From Vreelandella aquamarina (GTDB taxonomy: Bacteria > Pseudomonadota > Gammaproteobacteria > Pseudomonadales > Halomonadaceae), in the NCBI RefSeq assembly GCF_900110265.1, contig NZ_FODB01000019.1, forward strand, positions 5,079-29,078: DNA of 24,000 bases, written 5' to 3'. This document shows, piece by piece, positions 1,061 to 18,179 of the stretch. The number at the start of each line of letters is the position of its first letter. The stretch's first letter is position 1. Under the pieces are notes generated by a model. It ran no database searches, was not told the origin of the DNA, and was given only the letters and a program-made list of their open reading frames with translations. The translations under genes and the position numbers were made by a program.

Positions 1061-2608
1061 ATGTCAGCCCTTCCCATGTCCGCAGTTATTGGCGTGGTCG
1101 GCGCAGGTGCTATGGGTGCCGGTATCGCCCAGGTTGCCGCCCAGGCTGGCCATTCGGTGGTCTTGTATGACAATCAACCGGGTGCCGCTAACGCCGGTAT
1201 CGACAACATACGCCGCCAGTTAGAAAGGCGCGTCGCCAAAGGAAAGATGACTCAAGGCGATGTTATTAGCGTCATTGAGCGCTTGCAGCCTGCTGAGAGT
1301 ATGGATGCCTTGGCCCAGAGCCACTTGGTAATCGAAGCCATTCTTGAAGAACTTGAGATCAAGCGCCAGGTATTCGCCCAACTAGAAGCCCTGTGCTCGC
1401 CTGACACTTTGCTCGCCAGTAACACCTCGTCGCTGTCGATTACTTCTATTGCTGCGAACCTAGAACACCCCGAGCGCATGGCAGGGCTGCATTTCTTCAA
1501 CCCTGCTCCGGTAATGAAACTGGTGGAAGTGGTATCTGGTCTGGCGACAACCGTTGAGGTTGCTGACACCCTTTACGCTACCGCCAACGCTTGGGGCAAG
1601 ATTGCGGTGCATGCCAGCTCCACTCCTGGGTTCATCGTTAACCGCGTGGCGCGACCATTCTATGCTGAAGGGTTACGACTGTTGCAAGAAGGTGCTAGTG
1701 ATGCCGCCACTCTGGATGCGCTGCTGCGTGAGGCCGGCGGGTTTCGCATGGGCCCCTTCGAGCTGATGGACCTGATCGGTCATGACGTTAACTATGCGGT
1801 GACCCGCTCGGTGTTCGACGCTTATTACGGTGACACCCGTTTCAAACCCTCGCTGGTGCAGCACGCCTTGGTCGAAGCTGGACGCCTGGGACGCAAGTCT
1901 GGTCAAGGCTTCTTCGATTATCGCGAAGAACAGCAAGGAGGCGCTATCAAGCCTCAGCCCAACATCGCGCGCCCAGCGCAAGTTGAATTACCGCCGCTAG
2001 TGGTGCAGGGCGACCCTGGGGTGATCGCTCCGCTGCTGGAACGCGCCCAGGAAACAGGACTCGATGTGGTTCGTCGAGTATCGCTGCATCAGGACGGCAC
2101 GCCTCGCTTGCACCTAGGCGACCTAGTTATGGCACTCAGCGACGGGCGCTGCGCCACCGAACGCGCAGTCAACGAAGGGCTCGAAGCACTGGTGCTATTC
2201 GACTTGTGCTTGGACTACCGCAGTGCCAGGGCCATCGCGCTCTCTGCCAGCCACGCCACATCGCCCGAGGCCTGCCAACTGGCCACCGCCTTCTTCCAGC
2301 GTCTGGGAATGGATGTCGTCTGGCTGACCGATACGCCAGGTCTAGTGGTGTTGCGTACCGTGGCCATGCTCGCCAACGAAGCCGCCGATGCCGTATTGCA
2401 AGGTGTTTGCAGCGCCCAGGATGTCGACCTAGCCATGCAAGCTGGCGTTAACTACCCACGCGGCCCCTTGGCCTGGGCGGACTTGCTAGGCTTAGCCTTC
2501 GTCAACCGCACCCTCACGCACCTGCAGCAGAGCTACGGCGAAGAGCGTTATCGCAGCTCGTTCCTGCTGCGTCGCAACGCCCTGAGCGAGGAAAGCTTTC
2601 ATGAGTGA
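1061..2608 (+). CDS. paaH: 3-hydroxyadipyl-CoA dehydrogenase (3-hydroxyacyl-CoA dehydrogenase family) PaaH
   Basis: The in-frame ATG at 1061 follows GGAGAA at 1051-1056, 2 nt after the paaG stop. The N-terminal Rossmann motif VIGVVGAGAMGAGIAQ is present. The protein is 515 aa, comparable to Pseudomonas-type PaaH/PaaC. Its stop overlaps the paaI start (ATGAGTGA). Confidence 0.9.
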   Translation: MSALPMSAVIGVVGAGAMGAGIAQVAAQAGHSVVLYDNQPGAANAGIDNIRRQLERRVAKGKMTQGDVISVIERLQPAESMDALAQSHLVIEAILEELEIKRQVFAQLEALCSPDTLLASNTSSLSITSIAANLEHPERMAGLHFFNPAPVMKLVEVVSGLATTVEVADTLYATANAWGKIAVHASSTPGFIVNRVARPFYAEGLRLLQEGASDAATLDALLREAGGFRMGPFELMDLIGHDVNYAVTRSVFDAYYGDTRFKPSLVQHALVEAGRLGRKSGQGFFDYREEQQGGAIKPQPNIARPAQVELPPLVVQGDPGVIAPLLERAQETGLDVVRRVSLHQDGTPRLHLGDLVMALSDGRCATERAVNEGLEALVLFDLCLDYRSARAIALSASHATSPEACQLATAFFQRLGMDVVWLTDTPGLVVLRTVAMLANEAADAVLQGVCSAQDVDLAMQAGVNYPRGPLAWADLLGLAFVNRTLTHLQQSYGEERYRSSFLLRRNALSEESFHE

Positions 2609-3068
2609 TTCCCAACTGACCCCACAGCAGCTGGCGGAAGCCTGTGCCGAGGCAATGTTTGCCCGTGACCATGCCAGCCAAGGGCTAGGCATGCGCATAA
2701 CCCGTGTCGCCCCCGGCTTTGCAGAACTGACCATGACCGTGCGCCAGGATATGGTACAGGGGCACGGCAACTGCCATGGCGGGTTTCTGTTTGCCCTGGC
2801 CGACTCCACCTTCGCGTTTGCCTGCAACAGCTACGATGAAGCCACCGTGGCCGCTGGCTGCAGTATCGACTACCTCGGCCCCGGCCAGCTAGGCGACGAA
2901 CTGACCGCCACCGCCGAAGAACGTAGCCGCCGTGGGCGCACCGGCATTTACGACATTACGTTGCGCAATCAGCACGGCGATACCATTGCCTTGTTTCGCG
3001 GGCGTTCCTACAAAATTCGCGGCAGCGTACGCCGCCTGGAAGATACTGCTGTTGGAGATAACCAATGA
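2601..3068 (+). CDS. paaI: Phenylacetyl-CoA / hydroxyphenylacetyl-CoA thioesterase PaaI (hotdog fold)
   Basis: The protein is 155 aa. It has the PaaI-type motif [21 protein letters not shown]. The gene is translationally coupled on both sides, overlapping paaH by 8 nt and paaJ by 4 nt (ATGA). Confidence 0.85.
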
Positions 3069-4270
3069 AAGACGCGCTGATCATTGATGCCATTCGTACC
3101 CCGGTAGGTCGCTACGGCGGTGCGCTTTCGAGCATGCGTGCCGATGACCTGGGAGCCATTCCTATGCGCACCCTGATGGAACGCAACCCGAGCGTCGACT
3201 GGTCGCTGATTGACGATATCTTTTACGGCTGCGCCAACCAGGCAGGGGAAGACAACCGCAACGTGGCGCGTATGTCCGCGCTGCTGGCCGGGCTTCCGGT
3301 CGAGGTGCCCGGCACCACCATTAATCGCCTTTGCGGCTCCGGTATGGATGCGATCGGCAACGCCGCCCGCACCATCAAGACCGGTGAAGCGGGGCTGATG
3401 ATCGCCGGAGGGGTGGAATCAATGTCCCGCGCGCCCTTTGTGATGGGCAAGGCGGAACAAGCCTTCTCACGCCAAGCCGATATCTTCGACACCACCATCG
3501 GCTGGCGCTTTATCAATCGCGCCATGAAAGCCCAGTTCGGCGTGGACTCCATGCCCGAAACAGCTGAAAACGTGGCCGAACAGTTTGGTATTTCCCGGGA
3601 AGACCAGGACGCCTTCGCCCTACGCAGCCAGCAGCGTACCGCCGCCGCTATCGAGGCTGGCCGCTTGGCCGAAGAGATTGTTCCGGTCGAAATCCCCCGC
3701 CGCAAACAAGACCCGCTGGTGGTGGATACCGATGAGCACCCGCGCGCTACCACAACTGCCGAGCAGCTTGCCAAGCTACCCACGCCCTTCCGCGAAGGCG
3801 GCAGCGTCACCGCCGGTAATGCCTCAGGCGTGAACGATGGTGCCTGTGCGCTGCTAATGGCATCTCCTGAGCAGGCCGAACGTTTCAGCCTCAAGCCACG
3901 TGCTCGTGTGGTGGGTATGGCCACCGCCGGGGTGGAGCCACGCATTATGGGGTTCGGACCCTCCCCGGCCACCCGCAAGGTACTCGCCCAGACCGGGCTG
4001 ACCCTCGATCAGATGGACGTTATCGAACTCAATGAAGCCTTCGCTGCTCAAGCGTTGGCGGTCATGCGCGACCTGGGCCTTAGCGATGATGCCGAACACG
4101 TTAACCCCAATGGCGGCGCCATCGCGCTAGGCCACCCGTTAGGCATGAGCGGCGCTCGGCTGGTCACCACGGCACTGCATGAACTCGAACGTCGGCAAGG
4201 GCGTTTTGCGCTATGCACCATGTGTATCGGGGTCGGACAGGGCATTGCTCTGATCATTGAGCGCTTATAA
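3065..4270 (+). CDS. paaJ: 3-oxoadipyl-CoA / 3-oxo-5,6-dehydrosuberyl-CoA thiolase PaaJ
   Basis: This is a 401-aa thiolase. The N-terminus [33 protein letters not shown] closely parallels E. coli PaaJ. The C-terminus has the thiolase motifs [20 protein letters not shown] and CIGVGQG. Confidence 0.9.
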
Positions 4271-4276
4271 GCCGAT

Positions 4277-4315
4277 TTCATAGACCACTACTTCATAGAC
4301 CACAAACCAGACCAT
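4277..4315 (+). promoter_or_regulatory. Direct repeats TTCATAGACCAC x2 (4277-4288 and 4292-4303, period 15) plus a partial third copy CAGACCAT (4308-4315) in the paaJ-paaK spacer. This is a candidate regulator-binding site or internal promoter element.
   Basis: Two exact 12-mers separated by 3 nt can be read directly in the sequence. They lie 50-90 nt upstream of the paaK ATG. No function has been demonstrated. Confidence 0.3.
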
Positions 4316-4365
4316 GGCTCATAAAACGTTAGCCCAATAACAACTTGCTTGACCGGAGATCCCTG

Positions 4366-5679
4366 ATGAATCAGCCCGCTACGCGTATCGACTCTGCGAC
4401 TCTCGACCCCTTGGAAACCGCCAGCGTCGACGAGCTGCGCGCCACTCAGGTCAAGCGCCTGAAGTGGAGCCTGAAGCACGCTTACGACAATGTGCCGTTC
4501 TACCGCCAGTCTTTCGACAAGGCTGGGGTGCATCCCGACGATATCCAGACGCTGGCGGATCTCGCCAAACTGCCTTTCACCACCAAGGCTGATTTGCGCG
4601 ACAACTACCCGTTTGGCATGTTGGCCACGCCGATGAGCGAGATCGTTCGTATCCATGCCTCCAGCGGCACCACTGGGCAACCAACGGTGGTGGGCTACAC
4701 CCAGAAGGATATTGATGTGTGGTCCGATGTGGTGGCGCGCTCAATCCGTGCCGCTGGCGGCAGCCGCAACGACAAGGTGCATGTGGCATATGGCTACGGC
4801 CTGTTCACCGGCGGGCTGGGCGCCCATTACGGTGCCGAGCGCCTGGGCTGCGCGGTGATTCCCATGTCGGGCGGCCAGACTGAGAAACAGGTTCAGTTGA
4901 TTCGTGATTTCCAGCCGGACATCATCATGGTCACCCCCTCGTATATGCTCAACATCGCTGACGAGATGGAGCGCCAAGGCATCGACCCTCATACGCTGCC
5001 CTTGCGCACCGGCATTTTCGGTGCCGAACCTTGGACCGACAGCATGCGCACTGCGCTAGAGCAGCGTCTGGGCATCGACGCCCTCGATATTTACGGCCTC
5101 TCCGAGGTAATGGGTCCGGGCGTGGGCATGGAGTGCCTGGAGACTAAAGATGGTCCAACCATCTGGGAAGATCATTTCTACCCCGAGATCATCGACCCGA
5201 TCAGCGGTGAGGTTCTGCCAGACGGCGAATACGGCGAGCTAGTATTCACCACCCTAACCAAAGAAGGCTTGCCGGTGATTCGCTATCGCACCCGCGACTT
5301 GACCCGCCTGCTGCCGGGCACCGCGCGCCCCATGCGCCGCATCGACAAGATCACTGGCCGCAGCGACGACATGCTTATCATTCGCGGGGTGAACGTGTTC
5401 CCCACCCAGATTGAAGAGCAGTTACTCAAGATCGCGTCACTTTCTCCCCATTACGAGATCGAAGTCAGCCGCCAAGGCAATATGGACATGGTGCGGGTGC
5501 GGGTAGAGGCGAATCATCATGACATCGCCCGCGACCCCACGGCCTGTGAGCAAGCAGCGAAACAGCTACAGCATGCTATCAAAACGTACATTGGTATCAG
5601 CACCCAGGTTGAGGTGTGCCAGGTAGAGAGCGTGATGCGCTCGCTGGGTAAGGCCAGACGCGTTAAAGATCTGCGCTAA
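4366..5679 (+). CDS. paaK: Phenylacetate-CoA ligase PaaK
   Basis: The ORF track starts at a TTG at 4345. The ATG at 4366 is preceded by GGAGA at 4353-4357 and gives MNQPATRIDSATLDPLETASVDELR..., which matches the usual PaaK N-terminus. The AMP-binding motif SSGTTGQPTVVGYT and the sequence YGLFTGGLGAHYGAERLG are present. The protein is 437 aa. Confidence 0.9.
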   Translation: MNQPATRIDSATLDPLETASVDELRATQVKRLKWSLKHAYDNVPFYRQSFDKAGVHPDDIQTLADLAKLPFTTKADLRDNYPFGMLATPMSEIVRIHASSGTTGQPTVVGYTQKDIDVWSDVVARSIRAAGGSRNDKVHVAYGYGLFTGGLGAHYGAERLGCAVIPMSGGQTEKQVQLIRDFQPDIIMVTPSYMLNIADEMERQGIDPHTLPLRTGIFGAEPWTDSMRTALEQRLGIDALDIYGLSEVMGPGVGMECLETKDGPTIWEDHFYPEIIDPISGEVLPDGEYGELVFTTLTKEGLPVIRYRTRDLTRLLPGTARPMRRIDKITGRSDDMLIIRGVNVFPTQIEEQLLKIASLSPHYEIEVSRQGNMDMVRVRVEANHHDIARDPTACEQAAKQLQHAIKTYIGISTQVEVCQVESVMRSLGKARRVKDLR

Positions 5680-5681
5680 TT
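5476..5681 (+). repeat. Left copy of a direct repeat, formed by the paaK 3' end plus the stop codon. It is duplicated at 8446-8651.
   Basis: At an offset of 2970 nt, 5521-5681 matches 8491-8651 with only 2 mismatches (5583 A/G and 5589 C/T, both synonymous). Segment 5476-5520 aligns to 8446-8490 with about 8 mismatches in 45 nt. Confidence 0.95.
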
Positions 5682-5698
5682 CACCTATCTTAAAAGTT

Positions 5699-5735
5699 GC
5701 CTCCTCGTGCTGTGCCGCCTCAGCACGAGGATGGC
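5699..5735 (+). terminator. GC-rich stem-loop just after the paaK stop, with no U-tract. It could be a leaky terminator, an attenuator or an mRNA-stabilising hairpin.
   Basis: CCTCGTGCTG (5703-5712) and CAGCACGAGG (5721-5730) are perfect reverse complements around an 8-nt loop. The stem can be extended to GCCT.../...ATGGC with one bulge. The hairpin is followed by AGGCTTCGTTTATCG rather than a T-run. Confidence 0.35.
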
Positions 5736-5788
5736 AGGCTTCGTTTATCGTCGTGTTTCCCCCAGGCCAAAAATAAGGATAAACATTA

Positions 5789-8233
5789 ATGCAAAATGTT
5801 CGCCTGCCTACCCTAGTCGGCACCACTGCCCTCGCACTTTTGATCGGTGCTACAACACCAGTAGTGGCCGATGAGATTACTATTAAACGCGATAATTACG
5901 GCACTCCCCATATATTTGCCGATGATCGCTATGGACTGTTTTTTGGCTATGGCTACTCCATAGCCCAAGACAGGCTCTACCAGCTGGAGATAACTCGCCG
6001 CAGCACCCAAGGCAAGGTAGCCGAGGTGCTTGGTTCTGACTATCTCGATTTCGATATTGGCATCCGAAAACACTATGACCCAGCCAGCATACACGCCCAG
6101 CTAGAATCTTTGCCTGATGAGCAGCATGATATTCTCCAAGGCTATGCTGACGGCATCAACCGCTGGCTAGAAGCCATCGAAGCAAACCCAGAAACCCTGA
6201 TGCCGAAGCAATTCATTGATGCTGGCTTCGAGCCAAGCCCTTGGAGTTCATTCGACGTAGCCATGATCTTCATCGGCACTATGGTCAACAGGTTTGGCGA
6301 CTACAACACAGAGTTAGAAAATCAGCAAATTTTCATGAACTTAGTGGAGATGCATGGCGAGGAGAAAGGCCAAGCATTATTTGACCTTTTGCTGACTTTT
6401 TATGATCCAGCTGCACCAACTACCATTCCTCACGGTGACTGGGACCCACAGCTCAGGGATGGTGCATTTTCTCTGGATGATAAGACCAGCAAATCGATTA
6501 CTTTCTTCCAAGCCCCGGAAAATGAAACCTACCTCGCAGCAAGCGGAGGTACCTTACAGCTGCCTAATCTTTATGAGCGCCCTTTCAGCAACCTATTGAT
6601 TCTTGGTTCTGATCGCAGTGATAGCGCAGAGTCCATCCTAATTAACGGCCCACAATTTGGCTTTTACCAACCTGCTTATACCTATTCTGTAGGGCTGCAT
6701 GGCGCAGGATATAACGCTGTTGGAAATAGCCCCTTTGGCTACCCAATGATAATGTTTGGTCATAATGATTCAATCACTTGGGGCAGCACCTGGGGTGCCG
6801 CTGACAACGTTGATCTATTCCGCCTTGAGCTGGATCCCAGCGAACCGGAGCGCTATCTCGTAGGCGATGATTATCACGACTTGGACAGCCGCGTAGAAAC
6901 CATCAATGTGCGAGACCAGAAGAGCCATGAACTAACTGTGTATCGCTCCCACCACGGTGCAGTAGTTGACTACCGTCCTGACGAGGGTGTTGCATATGCC
7001 AAGGCCCGTGGCTGGGAAGGCCATGAGATGGCAACCCTTATGGCCTGGCACAATATTACTAATGCTAATAATCACGCCGAGTGGCTAGAAGAGGCTTCGA
7101 AGTCAGCAATCAATGTCAACTTGTACTATGCCGACAAAGAAGGAAACATCGCCTATGTAATGGGTGGTCGCTACCCCCAACGCGCTCCAGGACATGACGG
7201 CAGGCTCCCGGCGCCCGGCTATGGTAATTATGACTGGCCGGGATTCATGCCTTTCGAAACCAATCCACAGGTGATTAATCCTTCAACTGGCTATATTGCC
7301 AACTGGAACCAACGCGCAGCAGAGGGCATGCCAAATCCTGATATGTGGTGGTATGCATGGCATGAAGCGGATAGGGTCCAGACTTTGTTCGACTCTATCG
7401 AGGAGCAGGAAAGCTTCTCTGGACAAGAAGCCTGGGAGTTGATGATGGAGGCTTCCTTCATTGATCCCAGCGCACGCTTCTTCATTCCTAGGCTAGTAGA
7501 AGCAGTAGAAGCTGCTGATGCCCCCGAGCTGCTAGATGCCATCAAGCTTCTAGCCACTTGGGATCATCGCGAGATCGACCAAACTGGCGACGGTTACTAC
7601 GATTCTCCTGCCGTCCCGCTGTATAGAGCCTGGCTCATGCATCTTATTGAACAAATCTACAGCAACATTCTCCCTGAGGCTCATAACGCTTGGTTTCTTA
7701 ACACTGGACATTTAGAGCCCGGCGGCAGCTCTCCTGGCAGCACAAATATCTCGGTAGCTGCCAAGGTGCTCTATCATGCACTTCAGGGTGAGAGCGATAC
7801 TATTGGCTTCGATATTTTCGGAGGCAAAGACCCTAAAGTGCTGATGCGCAATGCTTTGACCGAATCTGTAGAGTCGCTAAAAGAGGAACAGGGAGATGAA
7901 ATGAGCGCTTGGCGTACCGCCGTTACTCATACTACCTTCTCCCACCTTAATTTCTTAAGAGTACCTCAAGCCGGTGAAGAAGAAGCGATACAAATACACC
8001 ATGCCATGAACCGTGGCACAGAAAACAACATGACCATCTTCTCTAATGGGCAGGTCTCAGGTTATGAAGTCGCCGCGCCAGGCCAGTCAGGCTTCATTGC
8101 GCCTGACGGCAACGCCTCACCTCACTATCAAGATCAACTGAACCTCTTCGAGACACTCGATAATAAGCGCATGTGGCTCACACCCGATGACATAAAATCA
8201 AATACCTCACACTCAGAGACCATAGAGTACTAA
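5789..8233 (+). CDS. pac: Penicillin G acylase (Ntn-hydrolase, penicillin amidase family) precursor with an N-terminal signal peptide
   Basis: The 814-aa protein is collinear with my recollection of E. coli penicillin G acylase. Shared blocks include KRDNYGTPHIFADD, GYGYSIAQDRLYQLE, RRSTQGKVAEVLG, ILQGYADG, NPETLMPKQF, FDVAMIFIGTMVNRF, INGPQFGFYQPAYTYSVGLHGAGY, GYIANWN, NISVAAKVLY, NRGTENNM and VAPGQSGFIAPDG. The predicted signal peptide is MQNVRLPTLVGTTALALLIGATTPVVA. The beta-chain N-terminal nucleophile is Ser267, in SNLLILG at nt 6587-6589 (E. coli has SNMWVIG). The RBS is AAGGA at 5775-5779. Confidence 0.9.
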   Translation: MQNVRLPTLVGTTALALLIGATTPVVADEITIKRDNYGTPHIFADDRYGLFFGYGYSIAQDRLYQLEITRRSTQGKVAEVLGSDYLDFDIGIRKHYDPASIHAQLESLPDEQHDILQGYADGINRWLEAIEANPETLMPKQFIDAGFEPSPWSSFDVAMIFIGTMVNRFGDYNTELENQQIFMNLVEMHGEEKGQALFDLLLTFYDPAAPTTIPHGDWDPQLRDGAFSLDDKTSKSITFFQAPENETYLAASGGTLQLPNLYERPFSNLLILGSDRSDSAESILINGPQFGFYQPAYTYSVGLHGAGYNAVGNSPFGYPMIMFGHNDSITWGSTWGAADNVDLFRLELDPSEPERYLVGDDYHDLDSRVETINVRDQKSHELTVYRSHHGAVVDYRPDEGVAYAKARGWEGHEMATLMAWHNITNANNHAEWLEEASKSAINVNLYYADKEGNIAYVMGGRYPQRAPGHDGRLPAPGYGNYDWPGFMPFETNPQVINPSTGYIANWNQRAAEGMPNPDMWWYAWHEADRVQTLFDSIEEQESFSGQEAWELMMEASFIDPSARFFIPRLVEAVEAADAPELLDAIKLLATWDHREIDQTGDGYYDSPAVPLYRAWLMHLIEQIYSNILPEAHNAWFLNTGHLEPGGSSPGSTNISVAAKVLYHALQGESDTIGFDIFGGKDPKVLMRNALTESVESLKEEQGDEMSAWRTAVTHTTFSHLNFLRVPQAGEEEAIQIHHAMNRGTENNMTIFSNGQVSGYEVAAPGQSGFIAPDGNASPHYQDQLNLFETLDNKRMWLTPDDIKSNTSHSETIEY

Positions 8234-8430
8234 AAACACTCAAAATCCCAAGTATTGGCTATCCATAACCAGTTCTAACTTTACGAGGTCGCTCTCGACT
8301 GCCTTTTGCCCCCGGCGCACCAGGCATAGCGTTCAGCGCCTTGACTAGTGCTGTTTCTGAGAGTGACTTGGGTGCACACCTGGAAAGGGAAATGTTAGTC
8401 GACGGCAAGAGTGTCTCCTGCAGAGGAAAT

Positions 8431-8649
8431 TTGAAGGAAGTCAAAGGCAATATGGATATGGTGCTTGTGCGTGTCGAGGCGAGCAATCATGACATCGCCC
8501 GCGACCCCACGGCCTGTGAGCAAGCAGCGAAACAGCTACAGCATGCTATCAAGACGTATATTGGTATCAGCACCCAGGTTGAGGTGTGCCAGGTAGAGAG
8601 CGTGATGCGCTCGCTGGGTAAGGCCAGACGCGTTAAAGATCTGCGCTAA
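8431..8649 (+). pseudogene. Orphan paaK 3' fragment, the right copy of the direct repeat, lacking the N-terminal ~370 codons
   Basis: It encodes ...EVKGNMDMVLVRVEASNHDIARDPTACEQAAKQLQHAIKTYIGISTQVEVCQVESVMRSLGKARRVKDLR*. The intact paaK tail reads ...EVSRQGNMDMVRVRVEANHHDIARDP...KDLR*. The last 161 nt are 99% identical and similarity decays upstream. There is weak in-frame protein-level resemblance back to about 8380 (HLEREMLV..KSVS versus QIEEQLLK..ASLS). No RBS or credible start is present. Confidence 0.85.
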
Positions 8650-8709
8650 TTTCGCCCCCTGCTTAACAGCGGCGCATCGCCATAGACCGAGACTGAAACT
8701 CAGACCGAC

Positions 8710-8740
8710 GCCCTTGCAGGCAACCCTGCAAGGGCTTTTT
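8710..8740 (+). terminator. Rho-independent terminator downstream of the orphan paaK fragment. It is probably the ancestral paaK terminator and now ends the paaK-pac transcript.
   Basis: GCCCTTGCAGG (8710-8720) and CCTGCAAGGGC (8725-8735) form a perfect 11-bp stem with the loop CAAC. The stem is followed by TTTTT (8736-8740). Confidence 0.8.
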
Positions 8741-8858
8741 CATTCCCAAACAGCCAGCTTTGATGAAAAAAGATAGAACATTAAGAATCACTTAAATTCA
8801 GTCATTTTTCCTTTTTAAACCAACCACATTGGCTTTATCCGTAATCACAAAGTCTTAA

Positions 8859-8927
8859 AGTGACACATAAAAATACTTATTGATAAAATATTTTGTGTCA
8901 CTATACTTTAAACAAGATAAGTCACAC
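8859..8927. promoter_or_regulatory. Three copies of an AGTGACAC-like motif around the candidate paaA promoter. Two form a 9-bp inverted repeat, and the set is a candidate operator.
   Basis: AGTGACACA (8859-8867) and TGTGTCACT (8894-8902) are exact reverse complements with similar flanks (AAAGTGACACATAAAA versus the reverse complement ATAGTGACACAAAA). The right arm overlaps the spacer and -10 element. A third copy, AGTCACAC (8920-8927), has 1 mismatch. Confidence 0.4.
8880..8907 (+). promoter_or_regulatory. Candidate sigma70-type promoter for paaABCDE: TTGATA, a 16-nt spacer, then TATACT
   Basis: TTGATA lies at 8880-8885 and TATACT at 8902-8907, in an AT-rich segment about 50 nt upstream of the paaA ATG (8959). 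This was identified by eye only. Confidence 0.4.
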
Positions 8928-8958
8928 TCCCTGATAGTCCGACGCCGCGGAGGTCTCT

Positions 8959-9945
8959 ATGTACGCGCAGCTCGTTGAAACCGGTACTAGCAAACTTAAG
9001 TCACTTGACGAGATGGGCCCTGAGGAACGCCAGTTCCAAGAGCGCATCAATGATGAAATTAAGATAGAACCCAAAAATTGGATGCCGGACGCCTATCGCA
9101 AGACATTGGTCCGTCAGATCTCTCAACACGCTCACTCAGAGATCGTCGGTATGCTTCCGGAAGGCAACTGGCTGACGCGTGCGCCGACCCTTAAGCGCAA
9201 GCTGCAGCTGATGGCCAAAATTCAGGATGAGGCGGGTCACGGCCTGTACCTCTATAGCGCCATGGAAACCCTCGGTGCCGACCGCGACGAAGAGATCGAC
9301 AAGCTTCACGACGGCCGCGCTAAGTACTCCAGCATCTTCAACTACCCGACGCTTAACTGGGCAGACATGGGCACCATCGGTTGGCTGGTCGACGGCGCAG
9401 CCATCGTCAATCAGGTGCCGCTACAGCGCACTTCTTACGGCCCCTATGCGCGCGCGATGATTCGCGTATGTAAAGAAGAAAGCTTCCACCAGCGCCAGGG
9501 TTATCAGATTCTGCTGACCATGATGCAAGAAGGCACTGACGACCAGAAAGCCATGGTTCAGGACTCTATTAACCGTTTCTGGTGGCCATCGCTAATGATG
9601 TTCGGCCCGTCCGACGAAAACTCGCCTAACAGTGCCCAATCAATGGTTTGGAAGATCAAGCGTCACAGCAACGATGAGCTACGCCAGCGCTTCCTCGACC
9701 AAACCGTACCGCAGCTAGAGCTGCTGGGCTGCACTGCGCCTGACCCGGATCTCAAATATAACCAAGAGACCGGTCACTACGAGTTCGGTGAAATCGACTG
9801 GCAGGAATTCTTCGACGTGGTTAAAGGCAACGGCCCTTGCAACCGCGAACGTATCGAAGCACGCCGTAGCGCCATTGATAACGGTGCCTGGGTACGTGAA
9901 GCCGCCGTGGCTTATGCCGCCAAGCGTCAACGCAAAGCCGCCTGA
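8959..9945 (+). CDS. paaA: 1,2-phenylacetyl-CoA epoxidase catalytic subunit PaaA
   Basis: The 328-aa protein has long near-identical stretches to E. coli PaaA, including [75 protein letters not shown] and [11 protein letters not shown]. The RBS is GGAGG at 8949-8953. Confidence 0.95.
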
Positions 9946-10034
9946 TATCTCGAAACTAATACCTCGAAACTGATTTCTTAAAACAATAGGGAGCCCCACG
10001 GCACGGGGTTCCTCTGACCACTGAGGCTTCTCTC

Positions 10035-10316
10035 ATGGCTGACTGGCCCCTCTTCGAAGTTTTTATACGCAGCAAGCACGGTCTTAACCACAAGCACGTT
10101 GGCAGCGTACATGCCGCCGACCGCAGCATGGCAATCGAAAACGCCCGCGAGCTCTACACCCGTCGTAATGAAGGGGTGAGCATCTGGATTATTCCGGCTA
10201 GCGAAATCACCGCCTCTTCCCCTGATGAGAAAGAGCCGCTGTTCGACCCGTCTAACGACAAGGTCTATCGCCACGCATCCTTCTACAAACTGCCGAAAGA
10301 AGTCGGCCACATGTGA
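10035..10316 (+). CDS. paaB: 1,2-phenylacetyl-CoA epoxidase subunit PaaB
   Basis: The 93-aa protein contains WPLFEVFIRSKHGLNHKHVGSVHAAD...KVYRH.SFY, which parallels E. coli PaaB. Confidence 0.95.
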   Translation: MADWPLFEVFIRSKHGLNHKHVGSVHAADRSMAIENARELYTRRNEGVSIWIIPASEITASSPDEKEPLFDPSNDKVYRHASFYKLPKEVGHM

Positions 10317-10330
10317 GGAGGGAGGCTGTA

Positions 10331-11170
10331 ATGCAAAACGTGGCTAAGCAGAACACAACTCAGAAAAACATGGCTCATCAAAACATCGCTCAAAAAACAC
10401 AAACACCGTTGATCGATTACCTGCTGCGTCTTGGTGACAGCGCCTTGGTACTAGGTCAGCGCCACGCGCAGCTGTGCGGCAAGGCCCCTGCGTTGGAAGA
10501 AGAAATGGCGCTAATGAATGTGGGTCTCGACCTTTTCGGTCAGGCACGCAACTGGCTAGGCTATGCTGCTGAACTGATGGCTGCTGAACTGATGACTGGC
10601 AAGATCGATGCCGACCATCTGGCCTTTCGCCGCGACGCTCAGGACTTTCGCAACCTGTTGATCGTCGAGCAGCCCAACGGTGACTTCGCCGACATCATGG
10701 GACGCCAGTTCCTGTTCGATGCATGGCACGTGCACCTGCTTGATGGGCTGGCCCAGTCCAGCGACCCTCGCATTGCTGAAGTGGCTGCCAAGTCACTTAA
10801 GGAAGCGACGTACCACCTACGCCGCTCCTCCGAATGGGTGATTCGCCTGGGCGATGGCACCGAAGAGAGCCACACCCGCATGCAGCGCGCCCTAGACAAC
10901 CTCTGGCAGTTCACCGGCGAGCTGGTGCAGTTCGACGAGATTGATCAGGCCATGCTAGAAGCCGGTATCGCGCCTGCCCCGGAAACCCTGGTCACCCGCT
11001 GGAAAGCAACCGTGGAAGAGGTGCTTGAGGAAGCCACGCTGGAGCGTCCTTCCTACGACGCTTGGATGTATACCGGCGGCAAAGTCGGCCATCACACCGA
11101 GCACCTGGGCTTTCTATTGGCGGAAATGCAATACCTGCCGAGGACGTATCCTGATGCGACCGTCTGGTAA
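10331..11170 (+). CDS. paaC: 1,2-phenylacetyl-CoA epoxidase subunit PaaC, with an unusual N-terminal repeat extension
   Basis: The ORF track begins at a GTG at 10313. The ATG at 10331 is preceded by GAGGAGGGAGG at 10315-10325. From LIDYLLRLGDSALVLGQR onward the protein is collinear with E. coli PaaC, including LVEQPNGDFAD, DAWHV, KEATYHLRRS and HTEHLG..LAEMQYL. The start codon is less certain than the gene identity. Confidence 0.85.
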   Translation: MQNVAKQNTTQKNMAHQNIAQKTQTPLIDYLLRLGDSALVLGQRHAQLCGKAPALEEEMALMNVGLDLFGQARNWLGYAAELMAAELMTGKIDADHLAFRRDAQDFRNLLIVEQPNGDFADIMGRQFLFDAWHVHLLDGLAQSSDPRIAEVAAKSLKEATYHLRRSSEWVIRLGDGTEESHTRMQRALDNLWQFTGELVQFDEIDQAMLEAGIAPAPETLVTRWKATVEEVLEEATLERPSYDAWMYTGGKVGHHTEHLGFLLAEMQYLPRTYPDATVW

Positions 11171-11753
11171 CCCACCGTCGACACCTATCGGTGACGGGCC
11201 TATTGATGACTGGCCCTCCAGAGACCTGATCGGCAGCGACCGCAGCGGGCTGCCGCCAGCCGGTGAAAAAGGCGATGTCGACGCCGTGCTGGCCGTTTTA
11301 CAGGAAGTGCCAGACCCGGAAGTTCCGGTGGTCAGCGTGGTTGAGCTGGGCATTGTGCGCGATATTGATTGGGTGGACGGTCGGTTGGCGGTCAACGTGA
11401 CGCCAACTTACTCCGGCTGCCCGGCTACGGAAGTCATCGAACAGCATATCCATGAAGCGCTAGTGGCCGCTGGCTACTCAGACCCGCTAATTCAACGCCG
11501 CCTATCACCCGCCTGGACGACCGACTGGCTGACCGACGCCGGGCGCGAAAAATTGCGCGCCTATGGCATCGCACCACCGGTGGGAAGTGCCAGCAAACGT
11601 AGCCTGACGGGCCAGTCTGACCCGGTAGTGCCCTGCCCTTTATGTGGCAGCAACGCGACCGAACGCGTCAGCGAATTCGGCTCTACGGCTTGCAAGGCGC
11701 TCTACCGCTGCCGCGATTGCCTGGAGCCTTTCGATTATTTCAAGTGTCTGTAA
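11154..11753 (+). CDS. paaD: Phenylacetate-CoA oxygenase subunit PaaD
   Basis: The ORF track gives 11025..11753. The first ATG beyond the paaC coding frame is at 11154 and overlaps the paaC end by 17 nt. The conserved PaaD core is present: VPDPEVPVVSVVELGIVR, TPTYSGCPATE, PAWTTDWLT, and the C-terminal SEFGSTACKALYRCRDCLEPFDYFKCL. This start implies an N-terminus about 35 aa longer than in E. coli PaaD, so the start is uncertain. Confidence 0.8.
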   Translation: MRPSGNPPSTPIGDGPIDDWPSRDLIGSDRSGLPPAGEKGDVDAVLAVLQEVPDPEVPVVSVVELGIVRDIDWVDGRLAVNVTPTYSGCPATEVIEQHIHEALVAAGYSDPLIQRRLSPAWTTDWLTDAGREKLRAYGIAPPVGSASKRSLTGQSDPVVPCPLCGSNATERVSEFGSTACKALYRCRDCLEPFDYFKCL

Positions 11754-11772
11754 AACGACGAGACCATTTCCC

Positions 11773-12855
11773 ATGAGCCGATTTCACGCCTTGACCGTCA
11801 AAGATGTGCGCAAGGAAACCCATGATGCCGTTTCCATTGCTTTCGACATTCCCGACGACCTGCAGGACGCCTTTCGCTTCACCCAAGGGCAGTACCTAAC
11901 GCTGCGCCACGATATCGACGGCGAAGATGTCCGCCGCTCTTATTCCATTTGCACCGGCGTTCACGAGCATGAGCTGAGAGTTGCGGTTAAATTGGTGCCA
12001 GATGGCAGCTTTTCCACCTTTGCCAACCAGCAATTGCAGCCCGGTGATCGCCTGGAAGTGATGCCGCCTCAGGGCAAGTTCTTCGTGCCTCTCGACCCTA
12101 GCCGTGAAGGGCACTATCTGGCGGTGACCGCTGGCAGCGGCGTTACCCCCATCATGTCGATTGTTTCCACCACCCTGGAAAGCGAGCCGAAAAGTCGTTT
12201 TACCGTAATCTATGGCAACCGTTCCACCACGGGCACGCTGTTTCGCGAGCGGCTGCAGGATCTCAAGGATCGTTACCTCGAACGCCTCAACATCATTTAC
12301 GTGTTCAGCCGCGAACAACATGAAATCGATCTTTACAACGGCCGTATCGATGCCGATAAGTGCAACGCCCTGTTTGACCGTTGGGTAGACGTACCCAAGC
12401 TCGACGCTGCGTTTATCTGTGGCCCGCAAGAGATGACCGAGATCGTGCGCGATGTCCTGACCCAACACGGAATGCCAAAGGAAAAGGTGCACTTTGAGCT
12501 GTTCACTACTGGGCTACCGACAGCAGGCGCCAAGCGCCGCCAGGCAACCAGAGCCGGTCAGCTTGAAGCAGAAACTTCGCACATCAAAGTGATTATCGAC
12601 GGCCGCACCATCGAATATAACCTGCCCCGCAACACCCAGAATATTCTGGACGCGGGTAACGAGCATGGGGCCGATCTTCCGTTCTCATGCAAGGCCGGCG
12701 TGTGCTCCACCTGTAAATCAAAAGTGATCGAAGGCGAGGTGGAAATGGACGCCAATTACGCCCTGGAAGATTACGAAATAGATGCCGGCTACGTACTGTC
12801 CTGCCAGTGCTATCCGATCAGCGACAAGGTAGTGCTCGACTTTGACGAGGTGTAA
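11773..12855 (+). CDS. paaE: Phenylacetyl-CoA epoxidase reductase subunit PaaE (FNR-like domain plus a C-terminal plant-type 2Fe-2S ferredoxin domain)
   Basis: The in-frame ATG at 11773 gives MSRFHALTVKDVRKETHDAVSIAF, which parallels the E. coli PaaE N-terminus. The RRSYS flavin motif and the AGSGVTP NAD(P)H motif are present. The C-terminal cysteine cluster is CKAGVCSTCKSKV...LSCQ. The protein is 360 aa. Confidence 0.9.
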   Translation: MSRFHALTVKDVRKETHDAVSIAFDIPDDLQDAFRFTQGQYLTLRHDIDGEDVRRSYSICTGVHEHELRVAVKLVPDGSFSTFANQQLQPGDRLEVMPPQGKFFVPLDPSREGHYLAVTAGSGVTPIMSIVSTTLESEPKSRFTVIYGNRSTTGTLFRERLQDLKDRYLERLNIIYVFSREQHEIDLYNGRIDADKCNALFDRWVDVPKLDAAFICGPQEMTEIVRDVLTQHGMPKEKVHFELFTTGLPTAGAKRRQATRAGQLEAETSHIKVIIDGRTIEYNLPRNTQNILDAGNEHGADLPFSCKAGVCSTCKSKVIEGEVEMDANYALEDYEIDAGYVLSCQCYPISDKVVLDFDEV

Positions 12856-12875
12856 GCCCGTCACCATCTACCTCC

Positions 12876-12905
12876 AAAGCCGGCGATCGCGTCGGCTTTG
12901 TTTAT
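12876..12905 (+). terminator. Candidate rho-independent terminator or attenuator after paaE
   Basis: AAAGCCGGCG and CGTCGGCTTT form a stem with one G-U pair and the loop ATCG. The stem is followed by TTTGTTTAT. Confidence 0.5.
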
Positions 12906-12907
12906 CC

Positions 12908-12946
12908 TGATACCAACAATTGATACCAACAACTGATACCAAAAAG
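12908..12946 (+). repeat. Three tandem 13-bp repeats immediately upstream of paaZ: TGATACCAACAAT, TGATACCAACAAC and TGATACCAAAAAG
   Basis: The units are read directly at 12908-12920, 12921-12933 and 12934-12946. They end 20 nt before the paaZ ATG (12966) and just before its RBS, GGGAG at 12951-12955. Confidence 0.9.
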
Positions 12947-12965
12947 ACGGGCGGGAGAACACGCG

Positions 12966-15008
12966 ATGCCAGTTTTACAGAGTTACATTGCCGGTCAATG
13001 GTTTGGCAAAACCGAGTCCAAAGCGCTGATCAGCGCCATCAACGGCACCACCGTTGCGCATACCCACCAAGAAGAGATCAACTTTCGCGAAGCGGTGGCG
13101 TATGCCCGCAACACCGGCGTAAAAAACATTCTGGCGCTGGATTTTCAGCAGCGGGCCGCCATTCTTAAGGCGCTGGCAGCCTATATCCAAGAGCGTAAGC
13201 GTGAGCTTTATGCCATATCTCACCACACCGGCTGCACCAAGGCCGACTCCTGGATCGACATTGACGGCGGTTTCGGCACGCTGTTTACCTACGCCTCTAC
13301 GGGCCGCAAAGAACTGCCCTCCGGCAATGTGGCCCACGAAGGCCCGGTGACTCAATTAGGTAAAGAGAACCATTTCAACGGCACCCACATTCTGGTGCCT
13401 CGTCGCGGTGTCTCGGTGCATATTAATGCCTTCAACTTTCCTATCTGGGGCATGCTAGAGAAGTTCGCACCCGCTTTTCTGGCTGGCATGCCGTGTATCT
13501 TCAAGCCAGCCACCGCGACGAGCTACCTGACCGAAGCTGCGGTACGCGTGATCAACGATTCTGGCCTACTGCCGGAAGGTGCACTACAGCTGGTGGTCGG
13601 TGGGGCCGGTGACTTATTGGATCACCTAGAAGAGCAGGACTTTGTCACCTTTACCGGCTCGGCCAACACCGCCTTAATGCTAAAAAGCCACCCTAATATT
13701 ATGGCCAAGAGCATTCCTTTCAACGCCGAGGCGGACTCGCTCAACAGCGCGATCATGGCACCAGATATCAGCCCTGAAGATGAAGAGTTCGCGATCTTTG
13801 CCAAAGAAGTGGTCAAGGAAATGACCGCTAAAGCAGGCCAGAAATGTACGGCGATCCGTCGGGTACTCGTACCCGCTGAGCATCTGGTTACATTGGCAGG
13901 CATGATTAAAGAACGTCTCTCAAGCATCGTAGTGGGCGACCCCCATGAAGAGGGCGTGCGCATGGGTGCACTCTCTTCCAGCGACCAGCTGTGTGATGTG
14001 AACGAGGCTATCGAACAGTTGCTGGAAACCAGTGAGTGCGTTTTCGGCAGAGACGGCAACTTCAAGGCTGTCGGCCAGAGCGTGGAAAACGGCGCGTTTA
14101 TTTCTCCTCACCTACTGATCAACCGTAACCCGTTAAACGACGGCGGCGCACACGACATTGAAGCCTTTGGTCCGGTCGCGACGCTAATGCCCTATAACGG
14201 CATCGATGAGGCCTTAGCCATTGCCGCCAAGGGCAAGGGTAGTTTGGTAACCACGCTAACCACCAAAACCCCCGCCATTGCTGCCGAAATGATCCCCGTG
14301 CTAGCCGCCCAGCACGGCCGCCTGCACATTCTAGATGCTCAGGCATCAAAGGAGTCTACGGGTCACGGCTCTCCGCTACCGATGCTCAAGCATGGTGGGC
14401 CTGGCCGCGCAGGCGGTGGCGAGGAGCTCGGCGGCATTCGCGCGGTACACCACTATCTACAACGCACTGCTATCCAGGGTTCGCCCACGATGGTGGCGGC
14501 AGTCACCGGGGAGTATGTGCGTGGCGCGAAGGTGCTGGAAACTGACGTTCACCCGTTCCGCCGCCATTTCGATGACCTGCAGGTGGGCGAGTCACTGTTA
14601 ACCCACCGCCGCACCGTCACTGAAGCCGACATCGTCAACTTTGGCTGCCTCTCCGGCGACCACTTCTACATGCACTTCGACGATATTGCCGCCAAAGAGA
14701 CCCAGTTTGGCCAGCGCATTGCCCACGGCTACTTTGTACTGTCGGCAGCCGCTGGCTTGTTCGTTTACCCAGGCGAAGGACCGGTACTGGCAAACTACGG
14801 CCTGGATACGCTGCGCTTTATTACGCCGGTGCTGGTTGGCGACACCATCCGCGCCCGCCTCACCTGTAAGCGCAAGATTGATCAGGGCCGAGCGTCTCCT
14901 GACGGGCACCCGCAAGGCGTAGTGATGTGGGATGTGGCGGTGACCAATCAGAATGATGAGTTGGTTGCCAGTTACGACATTCTAACGTTGGTCGCGAAGC
15001 GTCAGTAA
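12966..15008 (+). CDS. paaZ: Bifunctional oxepin-CoA hydrolase / 3-oxo-5,6-dehydrosuberyl-CoA semialdehyde dehydrogenase PaaZ (N-terminal aldehyde dehydrogenase domain plus a C-terminal MaoC-like hydratase domain)
   Basis: The 680-aa protein is collinear with E. coli PaaZ. Shared blocks include [67 protein letters not shown]-like, VTFTGSANT and [12 protein letters not shown]. The C-terminal MaoC-type segment contains [14 protein letters not shown]. Confidence 0.9.
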
Positions 15009-15037
15009 CGTTTCAAACGATAGAGTAAAGCAAAAAA

Positions 15038-15069
15038 ACGGATGACAGGGCGCCAGCCCTGTCATCCGT
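15038..15069. terminator. Bidirectional rho-independent terminator between the convergent paaZ (+) and TRAP dctM (-) genes
   Basis: ACGGATGACAGGG (15038-15050) and CCCTGTCATCCGT (15057-15069) form a perfect 13-bp stem with the loop CGCCAG. An A-run (15032-15038) lies on the left and TTGTTG on the right. Confidence 0.75.
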
Positions 15070-15099
15070 TTGTTGCAAAAAGAAGAGAATAGTGCAGTT

Positions 15100-16395
15100 T
15101 TAATAGAGCAACTGCGGCAGGAAAAGAGCAATCGTTGGGAATATAAGCACTAGCAGTGCGCGTATGGTACCCGCAACCCAGAAGGGGGTTACTCCACGGA
15201 AGATGGTTCCTGTCGAGACGTCCGGTAATACTGCACGCAATACGAATACGTTCATACCGACAGGTGGCGTTATCAAACTGATCTCGATAACGATGACCAC
15301 CAAAATACCGAACCACACTAAATCGTAACCTAGCCCAGCGACTACAGGGAAAAATACTGGCACGGTAAGTAGTAGCATCGACATGCTTTCAAATACACAC
15401 CCCAGTACTACGTAGATAGCGATAATGACCAGAATGACCACAAAAGGAGCCACATTTAGGCCGTTCACTAGCGCCAGCAAATCCCCAGGCAAACCTGCTC
15501 GATTGATAAAATTAGCAAATATCAGCGCTGTTAGAACCACAGCAAATAGCATCGCCGTAGTACGCACCGTATCCATTAGCACATTCATCAAAACAGTAGG
15601 CGTTAATGCTCGGTGCAACAATGCGATCAGGAATGCGCCCATTGCGCCGATACCTGCTGCTTCTGTGGGCGTAAATACCCCCAGATAAATGCCACCAATG
15701 ACTAGTACAAACAGTGCCAACGTACTACCTACGTTTTTGAGTGCTTGAATGCGCTCTGACCATGGCACTTTCTCTGCGGCTGGGCCAGCACTCGGGTCGC
15801 GCCAGAGTACCCACTTGATGGCACCAATATAAAGAAAGATCCCAAGAATACCGGGGATAAAACCAGCCGCAAACAGCTCGCGGATACTAGTTTCGGTAAG
15901 GATTCCATAAATCACCAGCATGACGCTGGGAGGTATCAAGATACCTAAGGTGCCACCAGCAGCAATGGAGGCAGAAGCCAGCGAATCCTTATAGCCATAT
16001 TTGCGCATTTGCGGCATGGCGACACGGCCCATGGTGGCACATGTCGCTAAGCTTGATCCGCATATAGCGCTAAAACCACCGCAGGCGACGATCGTCGCCA
16101 TCGCCTGTCCACCTTTGCGATGACCTAGGAAGCCATTCGATGCCCGAAACAAAGCATCGGATAATCCCGCATGAGAAACAAAGTTGCCCATTAAAATGAA
16201 CAATGGAATAACGGATAGACCGTAGTCCATGGCGGTGTCTACTACCCGACGCGCCGCCATTGCTTCAGCAGCATTCCAGTTACCGGTCAATAGATAGAAC
16301 CCTGCAAAACCGACAATCCCCATCGCAAATGCCAAAGGCACACGCAGAAACACGAGTATCAACAGCACTGCGAAACCGTACAACGCTTCAGTCAT
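15100..16395 (-). CDS. TRAP transporter large permease subunit (DctM family)
   Basis: The 431-aa protein is highly hydrophobic and polytopic. Its N-terminus, MTEALYGFAVLLILVFLRVPLAFAMG, and length are typical of the DctM family. Its start overlaps the stop of the upstream small-permease gene by 8 nt. Confidence 0.9.
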   Translation of the reverse strand: MTEALYGFAVLLILVFLRVPLAFAMGIVGFAGFYLLTGNWNAAEAMAARRVVDTAMDYGLSVIPLFILMGNFVSHAGLSDALFRASNGFLGHRKGGQAMATIVACGGFSAICGSSLATCATMGRVAMPQMRKYGYKDSLASASIAAGGTLGILIPPSVMLVIYGILTETSIRELFAAGFIPGILGIFLYIGAIKWVLWRDPSAGPAAEKVPWSERIQALKNVGSTLALFVLVIGGIYLGVFTPTEAAGIGAMGAFLIALLHRALTPTVLMNVLMDTVRTTAMLFAVVLTALIFANFINRAGLPGDLLALVNGLNVAPFVVILVIIAIYVVLGCVFESMSMLLLTVPVFFPVVAGLGYDLVWFGILVVIVIEISLITPPVGMNVFVLRAVLPDVSTGTIFRGVTPFWVAGTIRALLVLIFPTIALFLPQLLY

Positions 16396-16930
16396 GAGGC
16401 TCTCCTTTGCTCAGTGGGCCGCCTTGTTCGATAACATTAAACCCCTCAAGCAAATAGAAAATGGCTCGTATGAGGGTCAGTAGTGCTGACAGCGCTAACA
16501 TTAAGGCGATCAACCCGATTAGATAGCCATACGGAATACGAAGAAATTCAGTAACGTCTCCCCATGAGAAAGCCCGTTCTGCCAACGCCCATACACGCTG
16601 CGCCATCACCCAAAGAGCAGCTGTTACGATCAAATTGACGATCACTTCACGTATCCAAATGAGCCTTGCTGGAAAAATAGCATCAAGCAGATCGACGCTG
16701 ACATGCTCTTGACGCCAACAAACAACAGGCAGAGATAGGAATACCAGCGCTGCCAACATTAATTGGGTTAACTCAACAGCACCAAGAATGGGGGAATTAA
16801 AAAAGTAGCGGCCGCTTACATCAGCAGTGGTCAACAGCATCATGCCAAAGAGGGTAGCGCCCGCCACCCCCTCTAACATCACCTGCAGGACCCGACTAAC
16901 GCGCGTAGCACGTGCCATTTGGGTTTGCAT
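16388..16930 (-). CDS. TRAP transporter small permease subunit (DctQ family)
   Basis: The 180-aa protein has about four hydrophobic segments. It sits between the DctP-like and DctM-like genes and is translationally coupled to dctM. Confidence 0.8.
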   Translation of the reverse strand: MQTQMARATRVSRVLQVMLEGVAGATLFGMMLLTTADVSGRYFFNSPILGAVELTQLMLAALVFLSLPVVCWRQEHVSVDLLDAIFPARLIWIREVIVNLIVTAALWVMAQRVWALAERAFSWGDVTEFLRIPYGYLIGLIALMLALSALLTLIRAIFYLLEGFNVIEQGGPLSKGEPHD

Positions 16931-16960
16931 GGTCGCTCTCCATCTAGCGCTAGTAAGAAC

Positions 16961-18019: not shown

Positions 18020-18164
18020 TTTACTTTCCTCTGGTCGTCACAAATTGAGTGAAGAGCTAGTCGTTATTTTTGGATGATATTGGTAAGCCATACGTCCTGG
18101 TGATGCTCAGTGCGTGAGAGCGATGGGTAGCCATTCACCGCGCAAAACGTGATACTTTATTTTT

Positions 18165-18179
18165 TAATATTCAATATTA
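18165..18179. promoter_or_regulatory. Perfect 7-1-7 palindrome TAATATT-C-AATATTA in the AT-rich region upstream of the TRAP operon; candidate operator
   Basis: The palindrome is read directly in the sequence. It lies about 150 nt upstream of the dctP-like start (- strand), within a 475-bp AT-rich intergenic region. Confidence 0.3.

Follow-up and report, generated by a model that had tools for sequence, protein, structure and literature searches.

Why does a gene for a penicillin G acylase (PGA) lie among the genes of phenylacetate catabolism, and what does it do there? The question is raised by a 24,000 nt stretch of Vreelandella aquamarina DNA (NCBI RefSeq assembly GCF_900110265.1, contig NZ_FODB01000019.1, positions 5,079 to 29,078; hereafter the window, from whose first letter all positions below are counted), in which a PGA-type gene, pac, sits within a forward-strand paa catabolic cluster: by Pfam content, enoyl-CoA hydratase genes and paaG, H, I, J and K lie upstream of it and paaA, B, C, D, E and Z downstream. 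The natural role of PGA has long been argued, from regulation in one Escherichia coli strain, to be the scavenging of phenylacetylated compounds for the phenylacetyl-CoA catabolon. The answer we favour for this locus, with somewhat better than even confidence, is that the product of pac is a functional member of the PGA family which is exported through Sec, processes itself and provides phenylacetate from the periplasm, pac being expressed as the last gene of the paaK unit. The features on which the argument turns are the following.

4366-5679, + strand: paaK, phenylacetate-CoA ligase of 437 aa, last gene of the paaF/G-H-I-J-K unit (Pfam AMP-binding and AMP-binding_C_2)
5474-5681, + strand: left copy of a direct repeat, comprising the last 206 nt of the functional paaK and 2 nt more
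5694-5741, + strand: stable bulged hairpin between paaK and pac, its tail UUCGUUUAUC half U (fold -30.2 kcal/mol, z -5.5, 0 of 200 shuffles as stable)
5775-5779, + strand: Shine-Dalgarno-like AAGGA, 9 nt 5' of the pac ATG (sequence inspection)
5789-8233, + strand: pac, PGA-type N-terminal nucleophile (Ntn) hydrolase precursor of 814 aa (Pfam PF01804 Penicil_amidase, E 1.3e-136)
5789-5869, + strand: predicted Sec-type signal peptide MQNVRLPTLVGTTALALLIGATTPVVA, residues 1-27, then DEIT (from the translation; putative cleavage site)
6587-6589, + strand: codon of Ser267 in SNLLILG, beta-chain Ser1, catalytic nucleophile and autoprocessing site (gap-free alignment to residue 1 of 1cp9_B, 1kec_B and 1h2g_B)
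8234-8443, + strand: spacer of 210 nt from the pac stop to the paaK remnant, GC 0.50 (structure not significant, z -1.3)
8444-8651, + strand: right copy of the repeat, a paaK remnant that is the native paaK 3' end behind the insert (runs on into the native terminator and paaA promoter, as empty sites do)
8710-8740, + strand: native intrinsic paaK terminator, now 3' of pac, with an 11-bp stem (8 GC pairs; stem 8710-8735), 4-nt loop and TTTTT (terminator scan)
8860-8907, + strand: paaA promoter region, two overlapping sigma-70-like sites and an inverted GTGACACA pair (8860-8867 on +, 8894-8901 on -; promoter scan, octamer search)
8959-9945, + strand: paaA, first gene of paaABCDE (Pfam PaaA_PaaC, E 3.9e-93)

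Judged from its translation, pac apparently encodes a complete and functional PGA-type precursor with intact catalytic residues, as an earlier note, made from the sequence of this locus, had proposed from its signal peptide, alpha and beta chains and Ser267. The PF01804 match spans residues 30-803 and takes in profile positions 2-674 of 675. Compared with solved structures, the protein matches the best PGA chain at E 7e-208, the PGA beta chains of E. coli, Kluyvera and Providencia at ~1e-137 and PGA alpha chains at ~3e-64; D-succinylase (1e-45), PvdQ (1e-12 to 1e-19) and glutaryl-7-ACA acylases (1e-8 to 1e-16) follow more weakly. Because the E-values are so much better for PGA than for acyl-homoserine lactone (AHL) or cephalosporin acylases, we assign the product to the PGA side of the family, and 'penicillin G acylase' as used here for pac is a family assignment drawn from such matches. 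The alignment of mature PGA alpha chains starts at pac residue 27-30, directly behind the predicted signal peptide, in which inspection of the translation found no twin-arginine motif; the chain layout is then an alpha chain from D28 to ~214, a spacer of ~50 residues (~215-266) and a beta chain from S267.

Residues 1-266 of the E. coli PGA beta chain align to pac with 47% identity and no gaps, and beta S1, P22, Q23, F24, Y31, F57, S67, T68, W154, N241 and R263 are all retained. Among them are the oxyanion-hole and processing residues N241, R263 and Q23 (pac N507, R529 and Q289). Alpha M142, R145, F146 and E152 correspond to pac M165, R168, F169 and E175, the last of these being one of the kept Ca2+ ligands together with D339, D342 and D518 (beta D73, D76 and D252), and of ten positions of the phenylacetyl pocket six are kept (M165, F169, F290, F323, S333 and W420). 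We take the catalytic, processing, pocket and Ca2+ roles of these residues to be those they have in E. coli PGA. A tryptophan at beta 69 is invariant in an alignment of 25 homologues, and we therefore place pac in a distinct W69 subclade. At least 24 metagenome contigs from many samples encode the identical protein, as does the metagenome-assembled genome (MAG) GCA_023485185.1, always in the same context.

Comparison with close relatives reveals the region as an insertion. Empty sites were located via PaaK homologues and their contigs (the window's PaaK is 96-98% identical to those of Halomonas sp. M1, Vreelandella titanicae and V. neptunia), and pac-less relatives comprise Halomonas sp. M1 (L159), V. 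titanicae (L160-L163), two metagenome or MAG contigs (L164, L165) and a higher-GC Halomonas (L166); a PaaK scan of the JGI metagenome collection for further empty sites returned matches of at most 76% identity, which were of no use. An empty site reads paaK stop, ~60 nt, intrinsic terminator, conserved promoter region, paaA, with the terminator at the equivalent position in L159, L160, L164 and L165, and it is the empty sites of L159, L160-L164 and L165 that identify the pac region as inserted. By repeat search and alignment, window 8444-8651 directly repeats 5474-5681 over 208 nt at 95% identity. Since the right copy runs straight into the native terminator and promoter, the inserted unit is 2970 bp, made up of the unique segment 5682-8443 and one repeat copy, and its entry point lies 2 nt 3' of the paaK stop and 5' of the native terminator. 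The terminator behind pac, which had been described as inherited behind the paaK fragment, is the first canonical one after the gene and is native sequence outside the insert.

The sole credible gene in the insert is pac; three other open reading frames (ORFs) of at least 80 aa, two on the minus and one on the plus strand, lie within or overlap pac or the paaK remnant. GC content is 0.50 in pac, against 0.59-0.61 in paaG-K and 0.57 in paaA-E. A mobile element (insertion sequence, transposon or integron cassette) was considered and rejected, there being no transposase or integrase gene, terminal inverted repeats or short target duplication. The remnant was also considered as a piece of foreign donor DNA and rejected, as its 5' part has the distinctive states of the native allele carried by L165, a relative with an empty site, and the native terminator region follows on its 3' side. 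Both spacers (8234-8443 and 5682-5788) gave chance-level matches only when compared by blastn and tblastx with the related-genome and metagenome loci fetched. Gene finders call an 85-aa ORF with an AMP-binding_C_2 match at 8392-8649 on every contig; in it the paaK 3' remnant reads in frame with adjoining spacer sequence, and the ORF is most likely a pseudogene or an artefact of annotation.

Is an acylase beside paa genes peculiar to this locus? A profile of the clade was scanned against one genome per GTDB species, yielding 62 homologue loci of 38-62% identity. Bona fide paa genes lie within 10 kb in 22 of the 62, some of the remaining contigs being too short to judge. The linked taxa are Oceanisphaera, Zobellella, six Photobacterium species, Glaciecola, Haliea, Pseudomonas spelaei, Plasticicumulans, a Competibacteraceae MAG and other MAGs, and arrangements vary: the acylase may be convergent with paaK, beside paaZ or divergent from paaF, and in most cases it stands on the opposite strand or is separated from the paa genes by other genes or by kilobases. 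Acylases of this clade are therefore often physically linked to paa genes, and the rarity implied by the earlier note does not hold; that linkage recurs in several arrangements and taxa argues for functional coupling to phenylacetate catabolism. One locus (L158, 1815-7415) carries, in order, a 55%-identical acylase, an OprD-family porin, paaX, paaY and paaF; the porin, which recalls PhaK in the phenylacetate cluster of Pseudomonas putida, may be a partner in the uptake of the acylase's product or substrate.

The order paaK-then-pac itself occurs in at least two other lineages. In a MAG (L065), paaGHIJK is followed by an acylase gene on the same strand. The closest homologue of all (P0002, on L153; 74% identity, GC 0.63) begins 117 nt behind a paaK stop, and when L153 is set against the empty site of its own lineage (L166) homology ceases 2-3 nt after the paaK stop, which is the junction position of the window. 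Sharing of this junction by a 74%-identical homologue indicates that the paaK-stop/pac junction predates the window's lineage. A duplicated paaK remnant was found at none of the other homologue loci, and a pac inside the operon together with a duplicated paaK end is a variant confined to Halomonadaceae.

How might pac be transcribed where it stands? A consensus scan found zero sigma-70-like sites on the plus strand in 4200-7045, hence none in 5680-5788, as had been proposed, and the sole canonical plus-strand terminator in the scan is that at 8710-8735. The gene shares its strand with paaK, and the ribosome-binding site in front of it is a good one. A hairpin after paaK had also been noticed, at 5699-5735 and as lacking a U-tract; the structure is there, with a wider extent (5694-5741), and the description of its tail was too strong, UUCGUUUAUC being partly U-rich. 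The strict terminator scan does not call this hairpin, and an Rfam E-value search of 4200-9100, covering both pac spacers, returned no match. The hairpin may be a weak terminator, an attenuator or an RNA-stabilising element. Read-through from paaK into pac is plausible on these signals, and attenuated rather than free read-through seems more likely, given the stable hairpin with its half-U tail and the canonical terminator found at the same position in L153.

The regulator in question would be PaaX; L001, L002 and L005 carry a gene with a PaaX domain upstream of their paa genes. At the paaA promoter the centres of the inverted GTGACACA pair are ~34 nt apart, the pair overlaps the predicted -35 and -10 hexamers and it is conserved in the empty-site relatives; GCGACACA lies within the paaF promoter (L001, 3589-3596). 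The octamer GYGACACA was found only at the paaA and paaF promoters and is absent from 5680-5788. It is a candidate PaaX operator of the genus, unlike the E. coli box.

In the scheme we favour, pac would be transcribed mainly as the distal gene of a PaaX-controlled paaF-G-H-I-J-K unit, at a level that the intervening hairpin probably lowers. In the periplasm, the acylase would cleave amides or esters to yield phenylacetate or a closely related aryl-acetate; PaaK would turn the acid into phenylacetyl-CoA, which feeds the pathway; and phenylacetyl-CoA, the known PaaX inducer, would further de-repress the operon, giving a feed-forward scavenging loop. Transcription, substrate and localisation of pac are predicted here from DNA and protein sequence.

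The history of the insert can be read in part from its repeats and in part from its distribution. Between the two repeat copies there are 10 mismatches, 8 of them in the first 42 nt (Fisher p 2e-4). Over those 42 nt the right copy shares its states with L165, the empty-site relative with the terminator region most like that of the window, and the left copy, in the functional paaK, resembles the allele of Halomonas sp. M1 and V. titanicae; over the last 160 nt both copies carry states seen in no relative. A simple Campbell integration from an 82%-identical donor does not account for the near-identity of these last 160 nt, and allele replacement or gene conversion at a later stage would have to be invoked.

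Related contigs are mosaics with respect to the window and show recombination to be active in this region. L006 is 100% identical over 4500-10200 and 78-91% identical over 10200-18000, and L003 and L007 are 100% identical over 3600-9600 and from 10500 onward, 74-92% identical left of 3600, with a diverged patch at 9600-10200 (84-95%). The block so shared consists of the paaJ 3' end, paaK, pac, the paaK remnant and paaA (with paaB in L006), and this identity mosaic indicates recent exchange of the pac-bearing block among diverged Vreelandella backgrounds by homologous recombination. One ENA contig (ERZ1643211 k127_3514876) is identical to the window. The exact PaaK allele occurs on 15 contigs, of which 10 are listed; all 10 of these carry pac, and none shows precise excision, that is, the exact PaaK allele running straight into paaA. 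Retention of pac between 208-nt repeats capable of excising it is consistent with selection.

These patterns suggest the following route. The junction between the paaK 3' end and pac would have formed before acquisition by the window's lineage; a module carrying a paaK 3' end fused to pac would then have entered paaK by homologous recombination, leaving the 208-nt duplication that a Campbell-type crossover gives; later the upstream part of paaK would have been replaced by another allele, or the 3' parts homogenised by gene conversion; and the paaK-pac-paaA block would have spread between diverged Vreelandella backgrounds through its flanking homology. A bolder version, which we offer tentatively and consider rather improbable, makes the pac module a repeat-flanked cassette that loops out as a circle and re-enters a similar paaK by RecA-dependent single crossover. 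Each entry would put the acylase just 3' of a paaK stop and ahead of the operon terminator, and such a cassette would explain why two Halomonadaceae lineages with 74%-identical acylases have the same junction, as well as the 208-nt duplication and a 100%-identical block in backgrounds that are 80-92% identical. Were it correct, then taken with the paa linkage of the W69 clade it would mean that an 'upper pathway' for natural products bearing phenylacetyl groups, so far undescribed, is widespread in marine bacteria.

Several points weigh against the preferred account of pac as a read-through phenylacetate-supplying acylase. On the transcriptional side, a hairpin of -30.2 kcal/mol with a partly U-rich tail separates paaK from pac. 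In the L153 relative the paaK-pac spacer (102-225) holds a hairpin after a shared octamer, AAGTTGCC, and then a canonical terminator (11-bp stem CGACGGCGG/CCGCCGTCG with UUUUAUUU) that ends 30 nt before the pac ATG, so that pac there apparently relies on terminator read-through; L065 likewise has a terminator and a 170-nt spacer between paaK and the acylase gene. The transcriptional coupling of paaK and pac may thus be weak, or a pac promoter may go unrecognised: consensus promoter scans are insensitive and miss weak or alternative-sigma promoters, and absence before pac of the octamer, a candidate operator, is weak evidence. On the enzymatic side, the pocket departs from that of E. coli PGA at beta V56M, A69W, F71A and I177V, and we know of no characterised member of the W69 clade. 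The recombination route, finally, is by itself no explanation for the clustering of 8 of the 10 repeat mismatches.

The first group of these points lends most to the strongest competitor, which we regard as possible, though clearly less probable than the preferred account: pac would be an independent unit, the hairpin at 5694-5741 ending the paaF-K transcript and pac being served by a non-consensus promoter of its own in the hairpin region or just 5' of it, perhaps under other regulation, so that co-localisation is all that joins it to the paa genes. The strength of the hairpin with its tail UUCGUUUAUC, and the canonical terminators in L153 and L065, fit such a unit, and since most paa-linked acylases lie on the other strand or kilobases away, co-transcription is not the general rule of the clade. 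Set against this are the mere 47 nt between hairpin and ATG, the empty plus-strand sigma-70 scan of 4200-7045, the failure of the strict terminator scan to call the hairpin and the lack of any operator-like octamer before pac.

The pocket substitutions bear instead on the possibility that pac is an AHL acylase or other N-acyl amidase, its pocket reshaped by beta A69W and F71A, for which the paa cluster was a neutral landing site. The S45 family does include AHL and cephalosporin acylases, and 40 of the 62 homologue loci, short contigs among them, show no paa gene within 10 kb. We nevertheless consider this quite unlikely: PGA chains match pac at E 1e-137 and AHL or cephalosporin acylases such as PvdQ and the glutaryl-7-ACA acylases far more weakly (1e-12 to 1e-19), alpha M142 and F146 and beta F24, F57 and W154 are retained, and linkage to paa genes has been found independently in Photobacterium, Oceanisphaera, Zobellella, Glaciecola, Haliea, P. 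spelaei, Plasticicumulans and several MAGs. That pac is a recent passenger without function, or decaying, as its GC content below that of its surroundings and the success of close relatives without it might suggest, is very improbable in view of an intact 814-codon ORF with all catalytic residues conserved, the identical protein on at least 24 contigs from different samples, the spread of the block between diverged backgrounds and the lack of precise excision among the 10 listed of 15 contigs though the repeats would permit it.

The remaining parts of the cluster in the window are these.

to 1059, + strand: enoyl-CoA hydratase genes (end coordinate)
to 2608, + strand: paaH (end coordinate)
2601-3068, + strand: paaI
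3065-4270, + strand: paaJ
12966-15008, + strand: paaZ

Within paaC, the N-terminus of the product (window 10331-10400) is a low-complexity stretch, MQNVAKQNTTQKNMAHQNIAQKTQ. The called length of PaaC ranges from 264 to 279 aa across related contigs, and it is at this stretch that L003, L006 and L007 have their diverged patch (9600-10200 or 10201-10500). In V. titanicae (L160-L163, locus ~4470-6000) paaH is cut to an ORF of 55 aa, paaI is followed by paaK without a called paaJ, and there is a single enoyl-CoA hydratase gene; the beta-oxidation half of the paa cluster appears to have been deleted in this lineage. On the far side of paaZ (window 15100-23846) lie a TRAP transporter, dctMQP, and a MarR regulator (18495-19028), both on the minus strand, a metallo-beta-lactamase-fold gene (19512-20480) ~11 kb from pac, a FAD-dependent aromatic (flavin) monooxygenase gene (20562-22301) and a homogentisate 1,2-dioxygenase gene (22539-23846), with a dip in GC content to 0.37 at 18001-18500. 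The genes of 15100-23846 may form a hydroxyphenylacetate/homogentisate module adjoining the paa cluster.

The find is neither a new kind of enzyme nor a new kind of regulation. The functional idea has been known since the work on the phenylacetyl-CoA catabolon, and the physical linkage is frequent but apparently unwritten. What the locus adds is comparative support for the scavenging role, in the form of a clade of PGA homologues found repeatedly beside paa genes, with one operon-internal in Halomonas/Vreelandella. It also offers a tractable system, with cultivable Halomonas and Vreelandella relatives and natural loci with and without the insert, in which the natural substrates of the acylase and the tuning of the supply step relative to the pathway could be tested. 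A divergent PGA from a halophile (47% identical to E. coli beta 1-266, with tryptophan and alanine at beta 69 and 71) may interest biocatalysis, and calling of the 85-aa paaK remnant as a gene is flagged here as an annotation artefact.

How does this arrangement compare with what has been described? We found no paper that places pac within a paa operon, in a literature coverage that was incomplete, so that this amounts to absence of evidence only; the novelty suggested by the earlier note is reduced by the genome scan, in which the linkage as such proved frequent. Acylases and amidases go unmentioned in two comparative studies of paa clusters (PMC2653477, PMC13186573). A putative pac in the 'PEN' region of Acinetobacter baumannii AYE has been proposed as a scavenger linked to phenylacetate catabolism (PMC2265553). 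We considered this as a precedent for pac inside a paa cluster and rejected it, for the PEN (ABAYE1696-1713) and PAA (ABAYE2363-2376) regions are separate loci in that strain, unlike the operon-internal pac described here (PMC2265553).

In soil Pseudomonas, Burkholderia and Pandoraea, penicillin is catabolised by way of put (beta-lactamase and amidase) and paa operons, according to the summary of Crofts et al. 2018 given in PMC11446756. As far as that summary goes, these systems share with the present one an amidase that frees phenylacetate for the paa pathway, and the amidase and paa genes are co-induced (PMC11446756); pac of Vreelandella differs in lying within the paa cluster and in having no beta-lactamase partner.

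The closest parallel is the PGA of E. coli W (ATCC 11105), with which pac shares a signal peptide, alpha chain, spacer, beta chain, Ser beta-1 and Ca site, at 47% identity in the beta chain. E. coli PGA is exported via the twin-arginine translocation (Tat) pathway, whereas the pac signal peptide is Sec-like, and the pockets differ at beta 69 and 71. The logic would be shared as well, with an acylase that frees phenylacetate and whose expression is tied to the paa regulator, as we propose for pac. In E. coli that tie is made by PaaX, which binds the promoter of the acylase gene itself, Ppga, with phenylacetyl-CoA as the inducer (PMC9493321). The E. coli link is thus regulatory and made at the gene's own promoter, whereas pac in the window stands among the paa genes, 5' of the paaK terminator, and has neither a promoter nor an operator that can be recognised as its own.

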